Source: a virus. From it: DNA of 47,955 bases. A model generated the notes under the pieces. It ran no database searches. It was not told the origin of the DNA and worked only from the letters and a program-made list of their open reading frames with translations. Positions 145 to 4,816 of the stretch are shown here, piece by piece (the first letter of the stretch is position 1; each line of letters starts with the position of its first letter). Where the stretch lies: positions 1 to 47,955 of IMG/VR virus record IMGVR_UViG_3300045988_175607; one strand, 5' to 3'. A program made the translations under genes and the position numbers.

Positions 145-777
145 ATGGCCGCTGAAAATACTCCAATTCTATATACAGATTTATCGTCACTTATTACTCG
201 TTTACAAAACGTTTATACTACACATGGTTTAAGTTGGGATTGGAATGTATCTGGTAGCGAAGTAGGTGTTTACCCTCTTTCCACAGAAATAACAACACTT
301 TATAATAAATTCGTTGCTGCTCAAACAGAAGAGCATTTGGCAACTTGTGTAAAATGGACTATTGTCAATGGGGAACTAAGTTCTGGCTCCCCTTTGAAAG
401 ATGAAACTTTGAATGCGGCAGCTGCATCTCTCTTATCTATGGAAGCGAAAACGCATTATTCAAGAGTGGTTAATACTGCTGGTGCATTATATACACAGAC
501 CTCTCATTCTAATCAAACCACTTATAGCGAATCTTCTAATACAGCTGGTACTTCTTATTCAAATACCAGTAATGGTCGTAATTGCACTCAAAACTCTTCA
601 AGAAATGCTCAAAGTGGCAATAGTTCTAAATGCGGTTGCCATGTTGTATATAGTAGTGATTGTAGCCAATCCACCAATAGTGCAACAACCACGTATTCGG
701 AAACTTCATATAAAGCCGGCACAACTTATAGTCAAACAACAAATTCAAATGAAACCACTTATACATTTTCAGAATAA
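145..777 (+). CDS. hypothetical protein, C-terminal half made of Ser/Thr/Asn/Tyr-rich T-(T)-Y-S repeats with scattered Cys; candidate repeat precursor or structural protein
   Basis: Strong RBS aaaggagg 8 nt upstream of the ATG; 210-aa open frame; repeats TTYSESSNTAGTSYSNTSNG...TTTYSETSYKAGTTYSQTTNSNETTYTF. Confidence 0.6.
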   Translation: MAAENTPILYTDLSSLITRLQNVYTTHGLSWDWNVSGSEVGVYPLSTEITTLYNKFVAAQTEEHLATCVKWTIVNGELSSGSPLKDETLNAAAASLLSMEAKTHYSRVVNTAGALYTQTSHSNQTTYSESSNTAGTSYSNTSNGRNCTQNSSRNAQSGNSSKCGCHVVYSSDCSQSTNSATTTYSETSYKAGTTYSQTTNSNETTYTFSE

Positions 778-789
778 AAAGGTGAATAA

Positions 790-1236
790 ATGAATATTGA
801 TATAAATCAAGAGCCTATTGAAATTTTATTTAATATTAATAATATATTAAAACAAAATCAACTAGGGGAAGAAGAAAAACAGCAATTATCTGATATTTGT
901 GACATTCTATTGGAAAAAATAATTACTCGTCAAGGAAAATATCAAGTTATTCCTGTTGTAAATGATAATAATTATGATAGTGGCTATTTTGTTTCTTCAT
1001 TAGATTATCTTACAAAGCCATATCAAATACATGAACATAAATACATTGATAATGGCAATTTAAAATTGACTGAAGTATATTATACTGGCGCAAATGGTTT
1101 AAAATATCGAAAAGTTGCTTTTCCTGAAGTTTATAGAGACCCTGGTTTTTTATTGAATAATTCTTTGCTTGCCGAAAGACAAAAAAATATGGCATATCTT
1201 GCAAATAAACGTAATAAGGAGAATAAGAACATATGA
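790..1236 (+). CDS. hypothetical protein
   Basis: ORF of 148 aa; RBS aaaaggtgaa; translationally coupled (ATGA overlap) to the next ORF. Confidence 0.5.
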   Translation: MNIDINQEPIEILFNINNILKQNQLGEEEKQQLSDICDILLEKIITRQGKYQVIPVVNDNNYDSGYFVSSLDYLTKPYQIHEHKYIDNGNLKLTEVYYTGANGLKYRKVAFPEVYRDPGFLLNNSLLAERQKNMAYLANKRNKENKNI

Positions 1237-1550
1237 AAATTGGTATTTCATGTGATACAAATAATCAAACCTATGATATTCCTGATTTTTGGAATATTGA
1301 ATTTGGTGATAAAGAAGCTTTAGCCGAAACCCGTTTTTCATCTATTGGTCAAATTACTAATGCAAATCCTGCTGATCCAACACTTAAAAATATGAGCTTA
1401 AATTTTAAAGATTTAAATTCATTGGTGATTACCATTTATAATGATGATGGTGTTGCAATATATACTCAGATTTGTAATCGTTTAATTTATGCTATTCGTC
1501 GCGTAAATACAGAAAATAATTTTATAGAAAGTTTGTACTTCGTATCGTGA
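1233..1550 (+). CDS. hypothetical protein
   Basis: ORF of 105 aa; RBS aggagaataag; ATGA overlap with flanking ORFs. Confidence 0.5.
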   Translation: MKIGISCDTNNQTYDIPDFWNIEFGDKEALAETRFSSIGQITNANPADPTLKNMSLNFKDLNSLVITIYNDDGVAIYTQICNRLIYAIRRVNTENNFIESLYFVS

Positions 1551-1797
1551 ATGAATCTTTAATTAGTTTTACTTTATTTGGTCAAAAAATTGATATTTTA
1601 GAAAATATGGTAAAACAATGGGATTTAATTAATAGTGACGATGGTGTAGTTTTAACTCTTTTTAATTGTAAATTAACAGAATATCCGCATGAAATTTTTA
1701 ATGTTATTCTTAAAGGTGTGGATTATTCTAATATTCCCGCTTCAATTAATCCAATAGGTAATGATACATAGATTATAATTTTAAGGAAACATTTTTA
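1547..1797 (+). CDS. hypothetical small protein (74 aa to the TAG at 1769, or 82 aa if TAG is read through to the TAA at 1795)
   Basis: Coupled ORF; terminal TAG followed by 8 in-frame codons and then TAA. Confidence 0.4.
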
Positions 1798-3125: not shown

Positions 3126-3130
3126 AAAAT

Positions 3131-3427
3131 ATGAAAACTTGTTATATTATTGATGGAGAAAAAGAACATCCTCATGAAAATATTCCAGAAAAATGTTTAC
3201 AAACAATTGAGGATTCTAAAATAGTATTTTTTTATATAAAAAATGATAATAAAAGAAGTATTATTAATATTATGCGAGAAGAAGTATATGGGATTCATGA
3301 CTTTATATTAATAATAGATGATATTCCTTATAATATTGACCATACTGTATATAATACTATAATTAAAAATGAAAATAATGCCGTTTATGAATTTTTAACA
3401 TTTTATCGTAAAGAGGAGCAAGTTTAA
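3131..3427 (+). CDS. small protein between the two radical SAM genes (possible RRE/PqqD-like partner; speculative)
   Basis: 98-aa ORF, position only. Confidence 0.4.
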   Translation: MKTCYIIDGEKEHPHENIPEKCLQTIEDSKIVFFYIKNDNKRSIINIMREEVYGIHDFILIIDDIPYNIDHTVYNTIIKNENNAVYEFLTFYRKEEQV

Positions 3428-3430
3428 TAC

Positions 3431-4816
3431 ATGTCTTTTAAAAGTGAAAATAATGAACTCTTAAAATTTATTCTTGATACAGCTTTTTTCTCTGGATGGA
3501 GTGATAAAAATTGTTCATCAGATTTAAATGGCGGCTCTCGTGTTAGTTCTTTAGAATTATATGTAACTTCTGAGTGTAACCAAAAATGTGAATATTGCTA
3601 TTTAAATCGATATGGCGACAAACTTTACCCTGCCGAATTACGCAATGAAAAAACTATTCTTAATAATCTTGATATATTATTAAAATATGCTGTAAAAAAT
3701 TGGCCATATTTAAAACATATCGATATATTTAGTGGAGAAATTGTAGGCACTCAGATATTTTTTAATGTATTAGATATAATTAAAAAGTATAAAGAACAAG
3801 GATTAAATGAATTAGAAGAAATTATTGTTCCCACTAATTTTTCTTTCATTCATAGCCAAGAAATGACTGAAAAAGTGCAAAATTATATTGATGATTTTAA
3901 TAAAAATTATAATATGCGATTAGTGCTAAGTGCATCTATCGACGGTTATATTATTGAAGATTTTTCTCGTCCTCAAAAAATATACCATAAACGAGATATG
4001 GATTTTTATCATAAATCATTTCAATTTATGAAAAAAAATGGATTTTGCGCTCATCCTATGATTGCCGCTTGTTCAATTGATAAATGGATTGAAAATTATA
4101 AGTGGTTTATTGATATGTGTGAGCAATATGATTTTAATGTATTGCAGCAAGTAATGACATTAGAAGTTAGAAATGATGATTGGACTGATGAAGCGATTTC
4201 GCATTATCAAGAATTTTTAAAGTTTTATTGTGATTATCATTTTGAACATCGATATGATAGCAATCCTAGAAAATTTGCAAAAATGTCTTTAGGCTTAAAC
4301 GAAGAACGAAATGGATATACCAATTTTCTGCTTTTGGATGCAACTCAATTTCCCACTTGTAGTGTAGCCTATCAACTTACAGTAAGATTGGGAGATCTTT
4401 CTATTGCTCCTTGTCATCGTACTGCATATCCTGAATTTTTGTATGGGAAGTTTATCGTAGAAAATAATGAAATAATTGATATAGAAGCCAATAATCCAGT
4501 AATAGCAACTAAAATTTTACTTTCTAATCAAAGAAAAACTCATCATGGTTGCGATACTTGTTGGAATGTTAATAGTTGTATTAGAGGATGTTTTGGCGCT
4601 CAATATGAATATGGCGATGAGCTTTTCATGCCTTTACATTCAGTTTGTAAAATGTTTAAAGCTAAAACTCGTTGTTTAATACAGTGGTATAAAAACCATG
4701 GAATCATAGACGCTATAAAGCAAATTGCCCAAGAAGAGAAACAATCTCAAATAGAAATCCAAAAGTTTCTTGAAGTGTTTGAAGAAATTGATAAACGTTC
4801 ACAAATAGAAGAATAA
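3431..4816 (+). CDS. second radical SAM/SPASM enzyme
   Basis: SECNQKCEYCY (CxxxCxxC); C-terminal CDTCWNVNSCIRGCFGAQYE. Confidence 0.8.
   Translation: MSFKSENNELLKFILDTAFFSGWSDKNCSSDLNGGSRVSSLELYVTSECNQKCEYCYLNRYGDKLYPAELRNEKTILNNLDILLKYAVKNWPYLKHIDIFSGEIVGTQIFFNVLDIIKKYKEQGLNELEEIIVPTNFSFIHSQEMTEKVQNYIDDFNKNYNMRLVLSASIDGYIIEDFSRPQKIYHKRDMDFYHKSFQFMKKNGFCAHPMIAACSIDKWIENYKWFIDMCEQYDFNVLQQVMTLEVRNDDWTDEAISHYQEFLKFYCDYHFEHRYDSNPRKFAKMSLGLNEERNGYTNFLLLDATQFPTCSVAYQLTVRLGDLSIAPCHRTAYPEFLYGKFIVENNEIIDIEANNPVIATKILLSNQRKTHHGCDTCWNVNSCIRGCFGAQYEYGDELFMPLHSVCKMFKAKTRCLIQWYKNHGIIDAIKQIAQEEKQSQIEIQKFLEVFEEIDKRSQIEE

Follow-up and report, generated by a model that had tools for sequence, protein, structure and literature searches.

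What would a gut-type phage make with a pair of enzymes of the radical S-adenosylmethionine (rSAM) kind and a protein of Ser/Thr/Tyr repeats, and why would it keep their genes in an intron? These questions were raised by positions 145-4816 of a viral DNA of 47,955 nucleotides (nt), positions 1 to 47,955 of IMG/VR record IMGVR_UViG_3300045988_175607, hereafter the window. The best explanation overall, which we favored with modest confidence, was an intron-borne protein-maturation cassette whose product is cross-linked, protein-sized and fibre-associated. The first-pass annotation of the window had described a phage-borne module resembling those for peptides that are made by ribosomes and modified after translation (RiPPs), and every open reading frame (ORF) that it listed in 145-4816 was recovered. 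The seven ORFs lay on the same strand, with gaps of 3-28 nt or overlaps of 4 nt, in an operon-like layout; proteins are given below with their lengths in amino acids (aa).

131-138, plus strand: ribosome-binding site AAAGGAGG, ahead of the repeat-protein gene
145-777, plus strand: repeat protein, predicted substrate, 210 aa
790-1236, plus strand: p148, accessory protein, no family or PDB match
1233-1550, plus strand: p105, accessory protein, no family match
1547-1771, plus strand: p74, small accessory protein, no family match
1800-3125, plus strand: rSAM1, rSAM enzyme as read from Cys motifs and an AlphaFold2 model, with a C-terminal domain twitch-like by its Cys, 441 aa
3131-3427, plus strand: p98, small protein between both enzymes, candidate adaptor, 98 aa
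3431-4816, plus strand: rSAM2, rSAM/SPASM enzyme as read from Cys motifs, NCBIfam and a PDB profile search, 461 aa

At the heart of this operon is a cassette of three parts, the predicted substrate protein, the twitch-type rSAM1 and the SPASM rSAM2.

The repeat protein and the two enzymes

The repeat protein consisted of an N-terminal domain of ~100 aa, followed by 11-residue repeats of Tyr, Ser, Thr and Asn on either side of a middle segment with four Cys (Cys146, Cys162, Cys164 and Cys172). Residues 101-210 were 61% Ser, Thr, Asn or Tyr (24 Ser, 22 Thr, 12 Asn and 9 Tyr in the C-terminal 110 residues), and [ST]-Y-[ST] motifs occurred five times against 1.6 expected from shuffles (p about 0.01). 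The nine Tyr stood in the context Y-[ST]-x or similar, with T-Y-S-x reiterated, the C-terminus read TTYTFSE, and the gene contained no tandem repeat at the DNA level. The reiterated Tyr/Ser/Thr array with scattered Cys described earlier was therefore borne out by composition, by motif counts against shuffles and by the four Cys. A word-indexed search with the N-terminal domain returned only three near-identical proteins, while an exhaustive HMMER search returned ten. The orthologues P0244-P0250, from exhaustive HMMER, had in common the ~100-aa N-terminal domain, an 11-residue unit of N-T-A-G-T-[ST]-Y-[ST]-x-[ST]-[ST], and a conserved C-terminal TTYTES. The repeat protein itself had no match in Pfam, PHROGs or NCBIfam.

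Both enzymes are members of the radical SAM superfamily, and PF04055 matched both weakly (3e-5 and 0.01, below the gathering score). In rSAM1 the motif was C16-x3-C20-x2-C23, and alignment of 19 homologues left only C285, C303 and C407 as further invariant Cys; with three such residues, the C-terminal domain is, by its sequence, twitch-like or a partial SPASM domain rather than a full one. In rSAM2, C49/C53/C56 were accompanied by seven invariant Cys (C310, C328, C374, C377, C383, C387 and C406; 18 homologues, 37-70% identity), and the spacing C374-x2-C377-x5-C383-x3-C387 gave the complete SPASM pattern C...C...CxxCx5Cx3C...C; the SPASM model TIGR04085 scored 19.3 bits against a cut-off of 27. 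Of the two features assigned to both enzymes by the first-pass annotation, CxxxCxxC was present in each, and the C-terminal SPASM Cys cluster was full in rSAM2 but only partial in rSAM1.

The relatives of both enzymes pointed to peptide chemistry. For rSAM2, the NCBIfam ranking was PapB (3.3e-15), then QhpD, the Nif11-peptide maturase (Nif11-rSAM) and the SCIFF maturase, and the best match of the PDB profile search was CteB (5wgg, 1.7e-9). For rSAM1, the NCBIfam relatives were a twitch-domain family (N_Twi), HxsB and DynA, and the AlphaFold2 model (predicted local distance difference test, pLDDT, 83) matched ChlB best in the PDB (9gm3, E 5.6e-7 vs 1.5e-3 for the next, MoaA). ChlB is a radical SAM multiple-cyclophane synthase of the triceptide class (PMC12912966). 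The nearest characterized relatives (ChlB, PapB, CteB, QhpD, HxsB and DynA) all modify peptides or proteins, and no nucleoside or cofactor enzyme is among them. The role of peptide modifier proposed earlier was thereby supported, and the accompanying guess of aromatic-Cbeta cyclophane or thioether chemistry appeared to agree with these relatives. Scores against the curated families were low. For PapB (NF047865, cut-off 340 bits), rSAM2 reached 56.1 and rSAM1 21.5 bits, outside the family, and N_Twi gave 32 bits vs a cut-off of 170. The hidden Markov models (HMMs) of cyclophane enzymes gave 19.4 vs 445 bits for YhhB (NF041707), 13.5 vs 425 for AmcB (NF041718) and 11.6 vs 370 for FxsB (TIGR04269), and those of the HXS system gave 31.2 vs 370 bits for HxsB (TIGR03978; rSAM1 9.4e-8) and 13.6 vs 268 for HxsC (TIGR03977; rSAM1 0.023). 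Neither enzyme therefore belongs to a named family, and the chemistry is a guess.

The link between enzymes and repeat protein came from comparison of 85 loci gathered from IMG/VR, GTDB genomes and assemblies, on contigs of phages and of metagenome-assembled genomes. Dereplication at 80% identity yielded 39 enzyme clades, 33 of them assessable (at least 1.5 kb of upstream sequence). The gene for rSAM1 stood directly before that for rSAM2 in all but one of 79 instances (the exception being L079), and the order repeat protein, rSAM1, rSAM2 recurred across very divergent loci. An ORF with at least 35% Ser/Thr/Tyr/Asn ended no more than 120 nt upstream of rSAM1 in 21 of the 33 clades, and one lay within 1.5 kb of rSAM1 in five more, bringing the total to 26; the same composition was found in 6.2% of background ORFs. 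Seven clades fell short of the threshold, and several of these had a Phe- or Asp/Tyr-rich repeat protein that narrowly failed it, or had a repeat protein on the downstream side. The upstream proteins had a common architecture of N-terminal domain, short-period repeat array and conserved end, with lengths of 87-474 aa in relatives and 210 aa in the window. At least five repeat types were present (NTAGTTYS, SNGTx pentads with many Cys, WSQG, Phe-rich FNS/FSG and His/Tyr-N-T), and the type tracked the identity of rSAM2 to that of the window, at 62-100% for NTAGTTY, 37-44% for SNGTx and 30-36% for the Phe-rich type. This conserved gene order supported the earlier view of the repeat protein and the two enzymes as a functional unit, and gene neighborhood made the repeat protein their likely substrate.

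It had also been stated that phage genomes rarely encode such modules, which was true of cultured phages but not of uncultivated ones. Among 50,697 records of cultured phages, neither positions 1-8000 (megablast) nor the pair of rSAM enzymes (tblastn) found a match, whereas a metagenome protein database held 236 homologues of rSAM2 and 272 of rSAM1, more than 230 of each, often on common contigs of 15-490 kb. Literature searches found no description of this cassette. Proteins or peptides with repeats matured by rSAM enzymes are a known kind of system. We regard as new the families to which these enzymes and substrates belong, the pairing of the enzymes in a phage with a link to fibres, and an intron cargo of several genes, none of which was described in the literature searched (for introns, that on phoH introns only).

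By its position between the enzymes, p98 had been taken for a RiPP recognition element (RRE) of the PqqD kind, a proposal that was not supported. Pfam and NCBIfam gave no PqqD or RRE match at E up to 0.1, nor did the PDB yield an RRE (E up to 10) when searched with a profile built from five orthologues, and the ORF was missing from most loci, where less than 110 nt, containing no ORF, separated rSAM1 from rSAM2. There is also no space for an RRE fused to either enzyme, as CxxxCxxC starts at residue 16 in rSAM1 and at residue 49 in rSAM2. Orthologues of p98 were confined to the closest clade (34% identity in L001; the equivalent 86-aa ORF of L084 was too diverged for tblastn), and comparison by hhalign found no relation between p98 and the small partner proteins encoded elsewhere, nor between the small ORFs of the window and the accessory proteins c28, c42, c41, c19 and c49 of other loci. 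In other lineages, a different small protein followed rSAM2, and c28, c42 and c135 were mutually related (hhalign up to 95%). In HXS, the small protein HxsD binds one of two rSAM enzymes (PMC13128918), and one could speculate that p98 plays a similar partner role. Orthologues of p148 (55% identity in L001, 36% in L084) were cassette-linked and outside any intron; p105 also had orthologues in L001 (34%) and L084 (31%), and p74 had one in L001 (30%). Searches of PHROGs, Pfam and NCBIfam found nothing for p148, p105, p74 or p98, nor did the PDB profile search for p98 and p148.

Further genes accompanied the cassette elsewhere. In some lineages it was joined by YcaO (Pfam 1.7e-30) and a family 2 (GT2) glycosyltransferase. 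The same phage genome, as represented by a near-identical 162-kb IMG/VR contig (L011 and L031), contained three rSAM pairs. The two further rSAM1-rSAM2 pairs lay at L031 1209-4194 and 8154-11428, ~24 kb upstream of the window start, and were also present in L075; at least one was preceded by a Phe/Ser-rich repeat protein, the other following a 114-aa protein with 35% Ser/Thr/Tyr/Asn. Their neighbors, a ~300-aa Cys protein and a 240-aa protein, with a Na/sulfate-symporter-like gene in the related L028 and L045, were unlike those in the window. In many phages, members of the ~300-aa family (c1), with an invariant C-x3-C-x5-H, were encoded behind the cassette, frequently two in tandem:

L032 11996-13772: c1-type ~300-aa proteins
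L046 12083-13910: c1-type ~300-aa proteins
L026 12644-14446: c1-type ~300-aa proteins

Pfam, NCBIfam and the PDB contained no relative of this family, which may represent an additional modifying enzyme; a guess that it is U32-like was unsupported. In L084 (9470-15491), the cassette was followed by a protein that reads as subtilisin-like (S8-like), then by another small repeat protein accompanied by a separate rSAM pair, and by NeuB (sialic-acid synthase). In L016, L025, L027 and L056, the rSAM genes were broken into two to four standard-code ORFs, which suggests that stop-codon recoding operates there too and that the cassette often sits in recoded (late) genes.

Peptide or protein, and a possible link to tail fibres

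Several features of the cassettes and their genomic setting favored a protein-sized, fibre-associated product. In a P2-type prophage of an Oscillospiraceae genome (GCA_910576355), the genes for Baseplate_J and Tail_P2_I were followed by those for a Phage_tail_fib protein of 132 aa, another protein of 113 aa, the repeat protein and the two enzymes, rSAM1 before rSAM2, with holin and amidase next, so that the repeat protein occupied the place of the distal fibre. In six further lineages, which makes seven in all, tail-fibre genes lay directly upstream on the same strand, with a conserved fibre C-terminal domain 1-2.5 kb ahead (signature GAVWNDYAEFR...VWIKV; no Pfam or PDB match). One of these upstream fibre proteins had 1787 aa, and another, of 1245 aa, had classic fibre repeats; their identity as fibres was taken from architecture, weak PHROG matches and a weak Mtd_N match of the 1245-aa protein. 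The gene right after that 1245-aa protein encoded P0252, in which a Laminin_G_3 lectin domain (3e-18) was joined to the same NTAGTTY array and Cys segment, followed by p148, p105, rSAM1, a p98-like ORF and rSAM2. This lectin fusion indicated that the N-terminal domain is exchangeable and not a dedicated leader.

In recoded phages, in-frame TAG codons mark late genes, which are read once the suppressor is active. Four close relatives had TAG where the window has CAG for Gln118 of the substrate, and one had TAG at Gln354 of rSAM1. Recoding of TAG to Gln has been documented (PMC9523058; PMC10607447).

Within the window, on the minus strand at 45893-46699, a 268-aa protein carried the same fibre C-terminal domain (GAVWNDYAEYR...VWIKVR), which we take to resemble an autoproteolytic or chaperone module.

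The strongest competitor was a classical RiPP pathway, in which the ~100-aa domain is a leader and the multi-core array, once cross-linked, is cut into small cyclic peptides released at lysis as toxins, signals or bacteriocins. The repeat units do resemble multi-core aromatic-X-X motifs of the triceptide type (PMC12912966), and long structured leaders are known (PMC12537861). A subtilisin-like protease, called by sequence reading with no family listed by Pfam, stood right after rSAM2 in L084, YcaO accompanied the cassette in some loci, and in the window the endolysin and holin lay 0.5 kb downstream. We nevertheless considered this pathway unlikely, as scans with Pfam, NCBIfam and PHROG found no protease, exporter or immunity gene in the window operon, and most loci lacked them as well; a lectin domain of 230 aa could stand in for the N-terminal domain beside the same enzymes; the C-terminal ends were conserved (TTYTES; in the SNGTx family ..VD[IV]xNS..KTN), as in folded proteins; and the cassette was repeatedly found behind tail-fibre genes. 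The earlier likeness to a multi-core precursor was retained for the repeated units, but a protein looks likelier than a leader-core peptide in view of the N-terminal domain, the lectin variant, the fibre position and the lack of protease and exporter. A cross-linked, protein-sized, fibre-associated product hence seems likelier than a small exported peptide.

The group I intron in phoH2

The operon had been placed, apparently, inside an intron loop, and Rfam half-matches on both flanks, an 18-bp closing stem and a collinear exon junction substantiated that placement. The elements recognized in the window are given below, with L011 (locus 96% identical) used for comparison.

1-107, plus strand: group I intron, 3' end of the 5' half (P4-P6 region), from an Rfam match on L011
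44-48, plus strand: P7 5' strand GACUA, by sequence reading
69-77, plus strand: small peripheral hairpin, by sequence comparison with L011
81-90, plus strand: P3 3' strand, by sequence comparison
90-107, plus strand: P8 5' arm AATTCAAGCTTAAATAAT, 18 nt, 100% complementary to 4836-4853
4836-4853, plus strand: P8 3' arm ATTATTTAAGCTTGAATT, conserved in all six relatives
4854-4895, plus strand: intron 3' core with J8/7, P7 3' strand (AAGAUAUAGUC), P9 hairpin and terminal G 4895, from an Rfam half-match
4860-4864, plus strand: P7 3' strand UAGUC, which pairs with GACUA at 44-48
4896-5314, plus strand: phoH2 exon 2, C-terminal part of the PhoH ATPase, from Pfam PhoH

The intron started about 110 nt upstream of window base 1, and its 18/18-bp P8 stem, the only perfect long inverted repeat in 1-5400, enclosed the whole operon. 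At the 50-bit gathering score, RF00028 (Intron_gpI) had no hit on the whole sequence, because the 4.7-kb loop splits the match; each flank searched alone did match. The 5' half gave model positions 43-158 at 28.4 bits (E 1.5e-5; L011 6464-6660), and the 3' half, window 4800-4886, gave model positions 164-253 at 27.2 bits (E 1.2e-5), including the AAGAUAUAGUC element, so that the halves were contiguous on the model and broke at the P8 hairpin. P1 was formed by CUUGGGU and GCUCAAG, with the 5' splice site directly after CUUGGGU, GAUAUU between the two strands and a U.G pair at the splice site; the frame of exon 1 ended in a TGA straddling that site. One pair of P9 covaried (the window has A-U, L011 has G.U, and L006, L007, L008, L009 and L053 have G-C), and the 69-77 element differed in sequence in L011 and was still a hairpin.

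The exons told the same story at the protein level. The 147-aa ORF after rSAM2 was only the C-terminal third of a PhoH ATPase, and L011, read with TAG as Gln, had a 299-aa PIN plus Walker-A half ending in ...NSARLG just upstream of the operon. By joining exon 1 (L011 5556-6453) to exon 2, one PIN_4 + PhoH protein was obtained, with a continuous PhoH match (91 bits, profile 8-194 of 205). The predicted spliced product RLGFYPGTRDEK aligned with KLGYLPGTKDEK of the intronless L083 (49% identity) without a gap, ...NSARLG-F-YPGTRDEK... against ...NSAKLG-Y-LPGTKDEK..., and the predicted exon junction was CGACUUGGGU followed directly by UUUAUCCAGG. Both exons had intact reading frames at 97-98% identity in relatives, and no fewer than six independent assemblies had the intron-plus-operon arrangement; the exact pattern of the intron 5' end, used as a query, found the same contig only. 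The operon is very probably the P8-loop cargo (108-4835) of a ~5-kb group I intron in phoH2 (PIN-PhoH), and the intron is, to judge by its sequence, real and under selection. In the P8 loop, only 37 nt precede the first start codon and hold the ribosome-binding site, leaving no room for a promoter, so the operon is probably transcribed through phoH2. In L032-type phages, the cassette stood between RuvC and the next gene, and in the window those two genes adjoined with no cassette between them; in L001 and L084, the seven window genes did not lie within an intron. The cassette is mobile; in this phage it landed in an intron loop or was captured by one.

The insertion of the cassette might instead have destroyed splicing, leaving a dead relic intron and phoH2 as a split pseudogene. 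Both Rfam halves fell under the gathering score with no whole-intron hit, and we know of no group I intron with a 4.7-kb multi-gene loop, nor, from a literature search that covered phoH introns only, of multi-gene intron cargo other than endonucleases. Such a relic is improbable, however, given exon frames kept intact at such high identity, the A-U/G.U/G-C pair of P9, the hairpin retained in L011, the U.G pair of P1, the GACUA/UAGUC pairing of P7, the terminal G, and an exon-1 frame that stops exactly at the splice site.

Proposed maturation and comparison with known systems

Under the explanation we prefer, a cross-linked and protein-sized product of an intron-borne cassette, the operon would be transcribed through phoH2 exon 1, probably late in infection, and the intron would splice, restoring phoH2, with the pre-mRNA or the excised intron serving as operon mRNA. 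Both enzymes would use 5'-deoxyadenosyl radicals to introduce intramolecular cross-links into the repeat array of the 210-aa protein, rSAM1 (ChlB-like) most likely forming three-residue Tyr-to-Cbeta cyclophanes at the T-Y-S-x motifs, and rSAM2 (PapB/CteB/QhpD-like) most likely forming Cys thioethers in the central four-Cys segment. The product would stay protein-sized, most likely as a rigid, protease-resistant, tail-fibre-associated adhesin or decoration. We infer the identity of the substrate, the type of cross-link, the timing and the virion role; the type of cross-link is a tentative assignment, and a fibre role of the repeat protein is possible, if somewhat short of probable. It is more doubtful that the scheme extends to many uncultivated phages of anaerobes, with an rSAM pair stapling a fibre-associated protein tip, arrays diversifying with their enzymes, and group I introns acting as safe-harbor vehicles for accessory operons.

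Several observations weighed against this explanation. Gene neighborhood was the single line connecting enzymes with substrate, all enzyme family scores lay far under the curated cut-offs, and the structural match of rSAM1 to ChlB was modest (template-modeling score 0.47-0.54, 14% identity). Some substrate families had no Cys or only 5-7% aromatic residues and kept both enzymes, so a simple split of rSAM1 for cyclophanes and rSAM2 for thioethers cannot hold for all. For the repeat protein, the AlphaFold2 model was unusable (pLDDT 31), a substrate recognition element was not found, and neither was homology to any known fibre or adhesin family (Pfam, PHROG, NCBIfam). Its N-terminal domain resembled that of SNGTx-type substrates marginally (hhalign E 0.0098, probability 4%), while the N-terminal domains of the SNGTx type and the largest Phe-rich type were weakly related (hhalign E 2e-4). 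The window cassette was not near tail genes, the only tail-fibre-like gene being 41 kb off on the other strand, and L032-type phages carried theirs beside RuvC and not beside tail genes. Lastly, the ~5-kb intron, if it still splices as we infer, would have to do so with a translated seven-ORF loop of 4.7 kb.

Another reading is a conflict system analogous to HXS, in which the repeat protein, once matured, would stop superinfecting phages or oppose a host defence without being a virion component; HXS likewise has a pair of neighboring rSAM enzymes, a small partner protein and an effector protein with repeats, which the enzymes mature (PMC13128918). The weak matches of rSAM1 to HxsB and HxsC fit this idea, as does the behavior of the cassette as a movable accessory module, with its RuvC site empty in the window and filled in L032-type phages. 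We judged it distinctly improbable, given that the scores reached only 31 of 370 and 14 of 268 bits, that the substrate had no signal peptide by sequence reading, no peptidoglycan-binding domain in Pfam and no His-x-Ser array, and that PADLOC returned only a generic viperin-type rSAM match and no system hit; a virulent-looking 160-kb phage would, moreover, gain little from late exclusion. That the enzymes act on DNA or nucleotides, a cofactor or another phage protein, with the repeat protein merely a structural neighbor, is very improbable: phage rSAM enzymes can modify DNA bases (M6 gp53; PMC8989533), 11-12 rSAM genes with no role assigned are found in Campylobacter phages (PMC2853527), their products resembling rSAM1 in predicted structure, and the window is rich in nucleotide-metabolism genes, but the DNA-modifying enzyme is related to spore photoproduct lyase and not to SPASM/twitch enzymes (PMC8989533), the best matches of rSAM1 and rSAM2 were all peptide or protein maturases, adjacency to a repeat protein persisted across clades at 30-40% enzyme identity in unrelated contexts, and no 5-hydroxymethyldeoxyuridine kinase or transferase genes were among the annotated neighbor families of the cassette.

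The remainder of the window showed why such genes are easily missed. TAG is a sense codon in this phage, apparently for Gln, with 52 in-frame TAGs in 21 ORFs (for example 5374-6306, 39168-40283, 40721-41218 and 41291-41800); homologues aligned straight across the TAGs, and TAG/CAG substitutions occurred between relatives. Standard-code ORF lists consequently fragment the late genes. ARAGORN found no suppressor tRNA in the window. The lysis genes did adjoin the operon, as annotated at first, but the endolysin was one gene read through three in-frame TAG codons (5374-6306, 310 aa, PG_binding_1 at the N-terminus). Ahead of it, at 5315-5357, a hairpin that would act as a strong bidirectional terminator separated it from phoH2 exon 2, and behind it, at 6303-6635, came a 110-aa protein with two hydrophobic segments, holin-like by sequence reading. 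Further downstream, gyrB was interrupted (6925-10035), with GyrB of 580 aa, a GIY-YIG ORF at 8850-9725 containing six TAGs, and a C-terminal GyrB piece at 9793-10035, followed by gyrA. This looks like a second intron with a conventional homing endonuclease, and its content varied among relatives, L007 having extra ORFs. A 1685-aa DNA polymerase III alpha with an inserted intein was encoded at 27703-32760, its DNA_pol3_alpha match falling in two stretches, with a sub-threshold Intein_splicing hit at residues 533-855. The gene for the anaerobic ribonucleotide reductase, nrdD, appeared split, its N-terminal 392 aa being encoded at 33422-34600 and more of the homologous sequence at about 36782-37156. 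An unassigned 234-aa Cys-rich ORF lay between them at 35903-36607, and nrdG came next, at 37150-37680; one more insertion of an intron or endonuclease may explain the split.

If the enzymes modify the repeat protein, the cassettes would represent a large unstudied family of rSAM-matured proteins, all phage-encoded, carrying chemistry of the RiPP kind over from peptides that are small and secreted to proteins of phages, and offering many new enzyme-substrate pairs for peptide stapling. A product located in the tail fibre would be, to our knowledge, the first enzymatically cross-linked phage receptor-binding structure, and it would bear on host range and virion stability in the gut. The intron finding stands independently of the enzyme chemistry; a seven-gene operon in a P8 loop would show that accessory operons can be inserted into essential or conserved genes via self-splicing introns without cost. 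Together, TAG-to-Gln recoding and introns hide genes from standard annotation.

Among structural proteins, an analogy may be drawn with the gp38 tip adhesins of T-even phages, separate small proteins whose genes come just behind the fibre gene and which attach by their N-terminal part, the C-terminal part having low-complexity, Gly-rich repeats interrupted by variable segments. The repeat protein would, by this analogy, be comparable in gene position and architecture; gp38 is not known to be cross-linked by enzymes. In the triceptide systems (ChlB, MicB), MicA undergoes rSAM modification at the reiterated aromatic-X-X motifs YSK, HAS and FTK (PMC12912966), and the likeness lies in ChlB as top structural match of rSAM1 and in the reiterated T-Y-S-x of the window substrate. 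Those systems yield short, cleaved and released peptides with one enzyme per pathway, whereas the window has a 210-aa substrate, two rSAM enzymes, no protease or exporter, a phage setting and 14% identity to ChlB. PapB (ranthipeptides), CteB (SCIFF) and QhpD (acting on QhpC) resemble rSAM2 in the seven-Cys SPASM domain and as its best sequence matches, and QhpD cross-links a protein subunit, not a leader-core peptide. From these, rSAM2 differs in scores far under the cut-offs and in having no fused RRE, with only about 40 residues before CxxxCxxC, and some cassette substrate families contain no Cys at all. HXS shares two adjacent rSAM genes, a small partner and a matured protein-sized repeat protein (PMC13128918), but it is a bacterial defence, almost entirely of Pseudomonadota, with an effector that is exported and binds peptidoglycan, and its gene order and repeat type differ from those of the cassette, with HMM scores below the cut-offs. 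Finally, compared with phage group I introns that carry homing-endonuclease ORFs (T4 td, nrdB and sunY; the GIY-YIG intron in gyrB of the window), the phoH2 intron has a seven-gene cargo of 4.7 kb with no homing endonuclease recognizable in Pfam, NCBIfam and PHROG scans, while having in common with them a core with AAGAUAUAGUC, an in-frame stop at the 5' splice site and an ORF loop closed by a stem.

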